IMG/VR virus record: IMGVR_UViG_2541047961_000001
Length of the DNA stretch: 10,683 bases
Source: a virus
Taxonomy: Monodnaviria > Loebvirae > Hofneiviricota > Faserviricetes > Tubulavirales > Inoviridae
Reading direction: 5' to 3' (one strand)
Part shown: in pieces, positions 1,252 to 1,279 of the stretch
Layout: every line of letters starts with the position of its first letter
Position numbering within the stretch: position 1 is the stretch's first letter
The notes under the pieces: generated by a model
What the model was told of the DNA's origin: nothing
Database searches by the model: none
What the model saw: only the letters and a program-made list of their open reading frames with translations
Program-made: the position numbers and the translations under genes

Positions 1252-1279
1252 ATTTAACATAATATACATTATGCGCACC
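1252..1279 (-). other. dif: dif site (XerC/XerD recombination site), likely prophage attR
   Basis: The sequence at 1252-1279, atttaacataatatacattatgcgcacc, is the exact reverse complement of the E. coli dif 28-mer GGTGCGCATAATGTATATTATGTTAAAT. The XerD arm faces the host hydrolase side and the XerC arm faces the prophage. Confidence 0.85.

Follow-up and report, generated by a model that had tools for sequence, protein, structure and literature searches.

The DNA studied here, a window of 10,683 nucleotides assigned to the Inoviridae, raises the question of how a filamentous prophage comes to lie directly against a chromosomal dif site, and whose recombinase could have placed it there. The first-pass annotation read a 28-bp stretch as a perfect Escherichia coli dif in reverse orientation, about 140 bp from the last phage ORF, and both readings stand. 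Specifically, GGTGCGCATAATGTATATTATGTTAAAT is present once in the window, at 1252-1279 on the minus strand, with no mismatches, and was matched in none of 200 dinucleotide-preserving shuffles; a second dif-like site was absent from the window at up to three mismatches and, in a wider scan, at up to seven. Read on the plus strand, the 28-mer consists of the XerD arm ATTTAACATAA (1252-1262), the central hexamer TATACA (1263-1268), and the XerC arm TTATGCGCACC (1269-1279). Beyond dif, 140 nt separate it from the end of the nearest phage ORF at 1420; this noncoding phage end (1280-1419) follows dif, or the XerC arm of attP, directly in all sampled copies. In phage gene order the exact dif lies at the 3′ end of the prophage and represents the regenerated attR, its 28 nucleotides being identical in empty sites; YpfPhi likewise carries an exact dif at its 3′ (attR) end (PMC4266046). 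KOPS motifs (GGGNAGGG) occur at window positions 330, 4190, and 7079, all oriented toward dif, one on the plus strand to the left of dif and two on the minus strand within the prophage (two permissive and none nonpermissive inside it); these counts are too small for the orientation bias to be significant.

The element beside this site is a complete inovirus without a recombinase. Pfam analysis delineates a filamentous-phage module at 1420-8404, all on the minus strand, that displays the Inoviridae feature set of a G2P-type Rep, a G5P ssDNA-binding protein, small coat proteins, and a Zot/pI ATPase encoded on one strand, together with a pIV-type secretin. The last phage gene, and the one closest to dif, is a 65-aa ORF (1420-1617; WP_001298440.1) with no Pfam or PADLOC match, which by its position matches one of the two attR-adjacent ORFs of YpfPhi and CUS-1 (PMC4266046); an 82-aa ORF (1814-2062), for which no family match was obtained, is the second. 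These are followed by the pIV-like secretin (2151-3395; Pfam Secretin, 1.3e-24), the Zot or pI-like assembly ATPase (3395-4420; Pfam Zot, 2.2e-26), and a small DUF2523 protein (4424-4711; 1e-20), whose position alone suggests a pVI-like minor coat protein. A large ORF without a Pfam match (4724-6436), annotated with an internal start to give 520 aa (4724-6286), occupies the position of a pIII-like adsorption protein and is probably puvA, a role that we infer from its position and from the published description of the family (PMC4266046). Beyond it lie a probable major coat protein (6501-6734; Pfam Phage_Coat_B, 0.0016, below the curated cut-off), an 83-aa small protein (6769-7020) whose near-identical copies in other strains are annotated as membrane protein, the G5P-like ssDNA-binding protein (7023-7340; Pfam Putative_G5P, 1.2e-52), and the G2P/pII rolling-circle replication initiator (7352-8404; Pfam Phage_CRI, 1.2e-73, and G2P_X_C, 3.6e-34). 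On the plus strand, a divergent HTH repressor (8576-9022; Pfam HTH_3, 1.6e-9) takes the position of RstR (PMC4266046), and a conserved 140-aa ORF (9122-9544) forms the last segment common to the E. coli variants. The prophage unit amounts to about 9,505 bp, from window position 1280 to about 100 nt beyond the window end. The lack of a recombinase gene, claimed from the ORF list at first reading, was confirmed: no Pfam match to integrase, recombinase, or transposase families was found among the 14 phage-side ORFs, and no recombinase gene is listed in the annotation of the complete copies or of the circular form of the phage.

The host DNA around the site identifies it as the chromosomal dif. 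In matching genomes the locus is flanked by a ydeQRS-type fimbrial cluster on one side and by hipBA on the other; this is the dif/terminus neighborhood of E. coli, with dif at position 1,588,788 in K-12 (PMC2731167), and the placement of the window at the chromosome terminus is thereby upheld. On the XerD-arm side, the host flank (1-1251) is a mosaic of decayed gene fragments, of alpha/beta-hydrolase and cupin/mandelonitrile-lyase-like type, that break at about 361, 469, and 1100. Flanks of this type have lost different parts in different strains, as a comparison of D8, MINF_1D, LF82, and FEX669 shows. The empty site was sought with a 559-nt query, built by fusing the 279 nt up to and including dif with the first 280 nt beyond the far junction of strain D8. 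This query is matched at 100% identity and in one piece in many E. coli strains, for example UPEC132, and at least 80% of it is covered in 788 genomes. The comparison with the empty locus of related strains, suggested as a check at the outset, therefore has a clear outcome, in that the left flank, a single dif, and the hipA flank are contiguous where the prophage is missing. In LF82, for instance, dif runs directly into aacataaacc, the hipA-side flank. Since empty sites pass from dif straight into this flank, the insertion point of the prophage is exactly the outer end of the XerC arm in dif. A two-piece match in LF82, considered as a 96-bp remnant at dif, was rejected: the extra DNA lies upstream in the flank, and the dif of this strain is an ordinary empty site.

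What the phage contributes to the exchange can be read at its other end. The window ends at the stop codon of a DUF6953 gene, with the far junction outside it and attP starting 7 nt further on. In strain D8, the equivalent of the window end is followed by 7 nt and then by GGTTCGCACAA TGACG TTATGCTAAAG; next come a stem-loop (GGCCGCTGCG, loop, CGCAGCGGCC), then TTTCAACATAA CGAGTCGTACA TTATGCGCACC, and then the hipA flank. On the basis of this far junction, the attP-derived hybrid site (attL) is placed 7-100 nt beyond the window end. In strains carrying the phage in tandem (MS20658, MINF_1D, FEX669, and Yersinia pestis), the identical 93-94 nt are followed by the phage end AATGGTAAGG, and the circular record NZ_CP128883.1 has the same junction. 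As the junction is identical in tandem copies and in the circular record, it is attP. On the phage coding strand, attP comprises site 1, in which GGTGCGCATAA and TTATGTTGAAA are separated by a spacer of 10-11 nt that starts TGT, then the stem-loop, and then CTTTAGCATAA, CGTCA, and TTGTGCGAACC; site 2 reads GGTTCGCACAA, TGACG, TTATGCTAAAG, and the two dif-like sites are inverted relative to each other. Nine attP variants, taken from E. coli, Y. pestis, Photorhabdus, and metagenomic contigs, show no change in the stem or in the XerD-like arms, whereas their loop and long spacer are variable. Arm changes are confined to two chromosomal far junctions, where the outer XerC arm is different, and to one variant (L020), with a single-base change in the XerC-like arm of site 2. 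Folded in silico as single-stranded DNA, the phage-sense strand of attP forms a forked hairpin of -30.5 kcal/mol (z = -7.06), and no shuffle was as stable. The complement reaches -28.2 kcal/mol, a small strand difference of 2.3 kcal/mol in the direction expected if some phage-sense G·T pairs become A·C mismatches in the complement. Rfam returned no match at gathering thresholds. In the prophage of the window, the DNA past the window end would be expected to read GGTTCGCACAATGACGTTATGCTAAAG, stem-loop, TCAACATAACGAGTCGTACATTATGCGCACC, followed by the hipA flank in a single copy or by AATGGTAAGG in a tandem array; because the hybrid site lies outside the window, the window fits either arrangement in the source strain.

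The position of the exchange follows from the sequence that host and phage sites share. On the plus strand, the 15 nt TACATTATGCGCACC (1265-1279, a minus-strand feature) are common to dif and attP, and identity with Y. pestis YpfPhi begins at 1265, which places the crossover within window 1265-1279. Under a model of cleavage by XerC, the XerC arm at 1269-1279 would be phage-derived and the stretch at 1252-1268 host-derived. In Y. pestis, the chromosomal far junction has GGTGCACATAA and the phage-phage junction GGTGCGCATAA, the arm that is also carried by the dif of the lysogen CO92 (PMC2731167); these arms appear to fit an exchange where the XerC arm meets the central region, with the arm at the far junction coming from the host. 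At the Y. pestis NCTC5923 far junction (L006, reverse complement of 12573-12700), the adjoining 22 nt of host DNA resemble the phage end in register, with 19 of 22 positions matching, and the hipA-side flank of E. coli shares a weaker GGnAGAATC motif, as judged by eye. These flank resemblances on the XerC side of dif are possibly remnants of old phage ends.

Collectively, these observations make it very probable that 1252-1279 is the functional chromosomal dif of an E. coli lysogenic for a phage of the CUS-1/YpfPhi family, integrated by the host Xer recombinases in the manner of CTXphi. By analogy with that phage, the 93-94-nt region of the packaged (+) single strand of this integrase-less phage would fold into the forked hairpin, pairing the two inverted dif-like sites so as to yield one XerC arm and one XerD arm. 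Host XerC and XerD would then synapse the hairpin with dif, XerC would swap one pair of strands at the inner edge of the XerC arm, where the central region begins, and the resulting pseudo-Holliday junction would be resolved through replication. The expected outcome is an exact dif at the 3′ end of the phage, in which the XerC arm is contributed by the phage and the central region and XerD arm by the host, and at the opposite end a hybrid site with an 11-nt spacer that keeps the host XerC arm. Given this spacer, the hybrid site is predicted to be unusable as a duplex, and Xer-mediated excision is therefore not expected. The rebuilt dif would continue to serve chromosome dimer resolution and could receive further integrations, giving rise to tandem arrays from which phage DNA may be regenerated via rolling-circle replication. 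The mechanism is established for CTXphi (PMC3089051; PMC4246890), and a CTXphi-like mechanism has been proposed for YpfPhi and CUS-1 from identical sequence features (PMC4266046; PMC3442271; PMC2731167); for the present phage, catalysis by XerC, a single-stranded substrate, and irreversibility would be carried over from CTXphi by analogy. Nothing in the data contradicts this explanation, and several of its links are indirect. Superinfecting YpfPhi, however, is reported to insert between resident copies and not at the regenerated dif (PMC4266046), a pattern that does not fit the simple CTXphi model.

The architecture of attP also bears on the strongest competitor, an integration of the VGJphi type, in which the double-stranded replicative form would recombine with dif through a single duplex dif-like site in a reaction catalyzed by XerC and reversible by Xer excision. 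The crossover position taken by itself fits this pathway as well as it fits the CTXphi model, a circular double-stranded form apparently exists, the XerC arm of site 1 is perfect, and the spacer of this site agrees with the central region of dif over its first 3-4 nt. However, the VGJphi-type hallmark of a single duplex attP with a central region of dif length is absent: as duplexes the two sites have spacers of 10-11 bp (site 1) and 5 bp (site 2), compared with 6 bp in dif. Moreover, a conserved stem separates the two sites, which lie in inverted orientation and fold as one structure, and reviews group CUS-1phi and Ypfphi with CTXphi, not with VGJphi (PMC4246890). We thus consider the VGJphi pathway improbable and retain the CTXphi-like reading.

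If integration is directed to dif, the phage should be found there in other genomes as well, and this is what was seen. Of 5,426 complete E. coli genomes, 120 carry the phage core, at 225 chromosomal places and in one 9,565-bp circular record, and a 60-mer that joins dif to 32 nt of the phage end is covered to at least 80% in 151 E. coli genomes; the figures of 120 and 151 genomes are separate totals. At seven E. coli loci (TUM13881, EC36, FEX669, DEC5E, UTI89, D8, and MINF_1D) the prophage lies beside an exact dif or a tandem junction. Ten places were located through the exact sequence of the last phage ORF, among them some with host flanks unlike the usual E. coli flank; seven have an exact dif at the identical offset and three are tandem attP junctions. 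Related prophages adjoin an exact dif in Klebsiella spallanzanii, in Phytobacter, and on a contig labeled as a Nanosynbacter MAG. No copy away from dif was found among the seven E. coli loci, the ten last-ORF places, and the three loci titled as other taxa. The first-pass annotation had held that its proposal would fall if the 28-mer lay elsewhere in strains with the same prophage or if the prophage occupied other sites, and neither was encountered among the sampled copies. Copies at unusual record coordinates (233 kb, 1.1 Mb, and 3.8 Mb) were considered as non-dif sites and rejected, as they belong to the same fimbrial-cluster/hipA locus beside dif, in records that start elsewhere. Tandem arrays are present in MS20658, MINF_1D, FEX669, and Y. 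pestis. The circular record, NZ_CP128883.1 (L003), is labeled an "untypable plasmid" of E. coli TUM14759, which has chromosomal copies as well; its 9,565 bp make up a complete phage genome with a joined attP. It is probably the replicative form, although an artefact that arose when a tandem array was assembled is conceivable.

Several further loci show the phage in altered or mislabeled surroundings. In strain ST95-32 (L005, 2473-2582), dif retains just 82 bp of the phage end, after which the sequence passes directly into the tail genes of a tailed prophage, and this dif locus is a rearrangement or a deletion remnant. Photorhabdus tasmaniensis (L012, 5261-6886) carries a heavily deleted relative, in which about 1.6 kb contain the attP-derived hybrid site, a fragment of Rep covering residues 1-109, and a dif-like site with two mismatches. 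The enterobacterial phage is also found on JARKOR010000214.1 (L010, Candidatus Nanosynbacter MAG) and JAUMZL010000036.1 (L008, Aerococcus MAG), the former of which also contains an exact dif of the E. coli type and a hipA-side flank similar to that of E. coli; the taxon labels of both look like mis-binning.

Copies that already reside at dif could in principle have captured the window prophage, through homologous recombination between incoming phage DNA and a resident prophage or remnant and with no fresh Xer event. Such recombination has been suggested for the insertion of YpfPhi between resident copies (PMC4266046), and phage-end remnants beside dif do exist, as the 82 bp in ST95-32 illustrate. 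Yet this route accounts for secondary copies only, the first integration needing a site-specific event in any case, and the junctions are exactly as expected from a crossover at the XerC arm; we judge it very unlikely for the window copy, still more so than the VGJphi pathway. That the prophage was inserted by some other mechanism, with dif as its neighbor by accident, is scarcely credible, for although only one junction lies inside the window, the abutment recurs at the identical nucleotide in at least four host-flank contexts and several taxon-titled loci, and the phage has dif-like arms and no recombinase or transposase gene. Integration at dif by a CTXphi-like Xer reaction therefore remains the preferred explanation.

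Between the 140-aa gene and attP, the prophage has a segment with a lower GC content (0.355, compared with 0.425 in the core), and its content differs among prophages that are otherwise about 99% identical. In the window, this segment (9545-10683) encodes, on the plus strand, a 264-aa protein with a REase_DpnII-MboI domain (9612-10406; Pfam, 6.9e-59; PADLOC Aga_Helical-REase, 1.3e-34) and an 88-aa DUF6953 protein (10417-10683; Pfam, 1.8e-28). Segments compared by annotated coordinates were L014 12376-13467, L015 19985-20914, L016 12288-13394, L017 12373-13482, L020 3434-4318, and L021 3436-4190. D8 and MINF_1D share the pair found in the window, namely the Aga_Helical-REase protein, with an N terminus like that of the candidate PDC-S35, and DUF6953; DEC5E has a CAP12/Pycsar-type TIR protein, FEX669 an AbiJ_NTD4 plus DUF7014 protein, and UTI89 and EC36 unrelated ORFs of 363-369 aa with no matches. 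The segment looks like an exchangeable site for genes with defense-like domains, and our literature search found no description of such an exchangeable cargo slot. Whether it is a hotspot at which CUS-1/YpfPhi-type inoviruses swap anti-phage defense effectors is a more doubtful matter, a tentative idea that we would not favor on present evidence. If it were true, a dif-integrating filamentous phage would act as a defense-gene shuttle across Enterobacteria.

The remainder of the findings concerns a system that is already described. Integration at dif, the intact 3′ dif, the inverted XerC/XerD sites, and the tandem arrays have been published (PMC4266046), as has the CTXphi-type classification (PMC4246890). 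Everything in the dif finding is thus in print, and the finding is correct but already known. It implies no new mechanism, and possible wider interest is limited to the attP-adjacent slot with its defense-like domains. Its value lies in a dif-integrated, integrase-free prophage having been correctly recognized from raw sequence without tools, and in a further instance of a phage family linked to fitness and virulence in E. coli K1 and pandemic Y. pestis.

Within that family the relationships are close. Window positions 1265-9102 are 99.6% identical in nucleotide sequence to the prophage of Y. pestis NCTC5923 (7.8 kb), the core of the UTI89 prophage is likewise 99.6% identical, and the Rep protein has 100% amino-acid identity to the Y. 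pestis copy. The identity of 99.6% to Y. pestis YpfPhi makes the element a CUS-1/YpfPhi-family inovirus; the phage record collection yielded nothing in a megablast search with the prophage, and the identification rests on E. coli genomes, species-representative genomes, and the literature. CUS-1 of E. coli K1 is itself about 99% identical to YpfPhi/CUS-2 over the core (PMC4266046). With CUS-1 (E. coli O18:K1:H7) and YpfPhi, or CUS-2 (Y. pestis 1.ORI), the element has in common both attR-adjacent ORFs and all genes for replication, structure, assembly, and regulation, and it resembles them in its integration at dif, intact 3′ dif, inverted XerC/XerD sites, and tandem arrays. It differs from YpfPhi in the attL-adjacent cargo, the Y. 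pestis sequence diverging after window position 9102, and in the length of the unit (9.5 kb, as against 8.7 kb in YpfPhi). In UTI89, an O18:K1:H7 strain like the host of CUS-1, the attL-adjacent cargo is a single 369-aa ORF, in contrast to the REase_DpnII-MboI and DUF6953 genes found here.

Beyond the family, the closest parallel is with CTXphi of Vibrio cholerae, among whose relatives reviews list CUS-1phi and Ypfphi (PMC4246890; PMC3089051). The first-pass annotation had already drawn this parallel, likening the locus to CTXphi-type elements in which attR regenerates dif, and the exact, functional-looking dif at the 3′ end together with the inverted dif-like sites at the far end bears the comparison out. 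Both phages lack an integrase, have two inverted dif-like sites that fold in the (+) ssDNA, cross over on the XerC side to regenerate dif at attR, and form tandem arrays, and their gene order is similar (repressor, Rep, coat genes, Zot). CTXphi differs in its host and dif sequence and in its hairpin of about 150 nt, compared with 93-94 nt here, whereas the present phage encodes its own secretin and carries different cargo at the other end, with no cholera toxin. Xer dependence is experimental for CTXphi; in the present case it is deduced from sequence and from the work on CTXphi. The IMEXs VGJphi and TLCphi likewise integrate at dif via host XerCD. VGJphi does so through a single duplex attP and can be excised again, whereas no single duplex site with a 6-7-bp spacer was found here. 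TLCphi relies on a XerD-first exchange with the factor XafT (PMC4246890), whereas the crossover here is on the XerC side, and among the scanned ORFs no Pfam match could be attributed to a XafT-like Xer activation factor. Every feature that can be tested in silico assigns the element to the CUS-1/YpfPhi lineage and to the CTXphi-type IMEXs.
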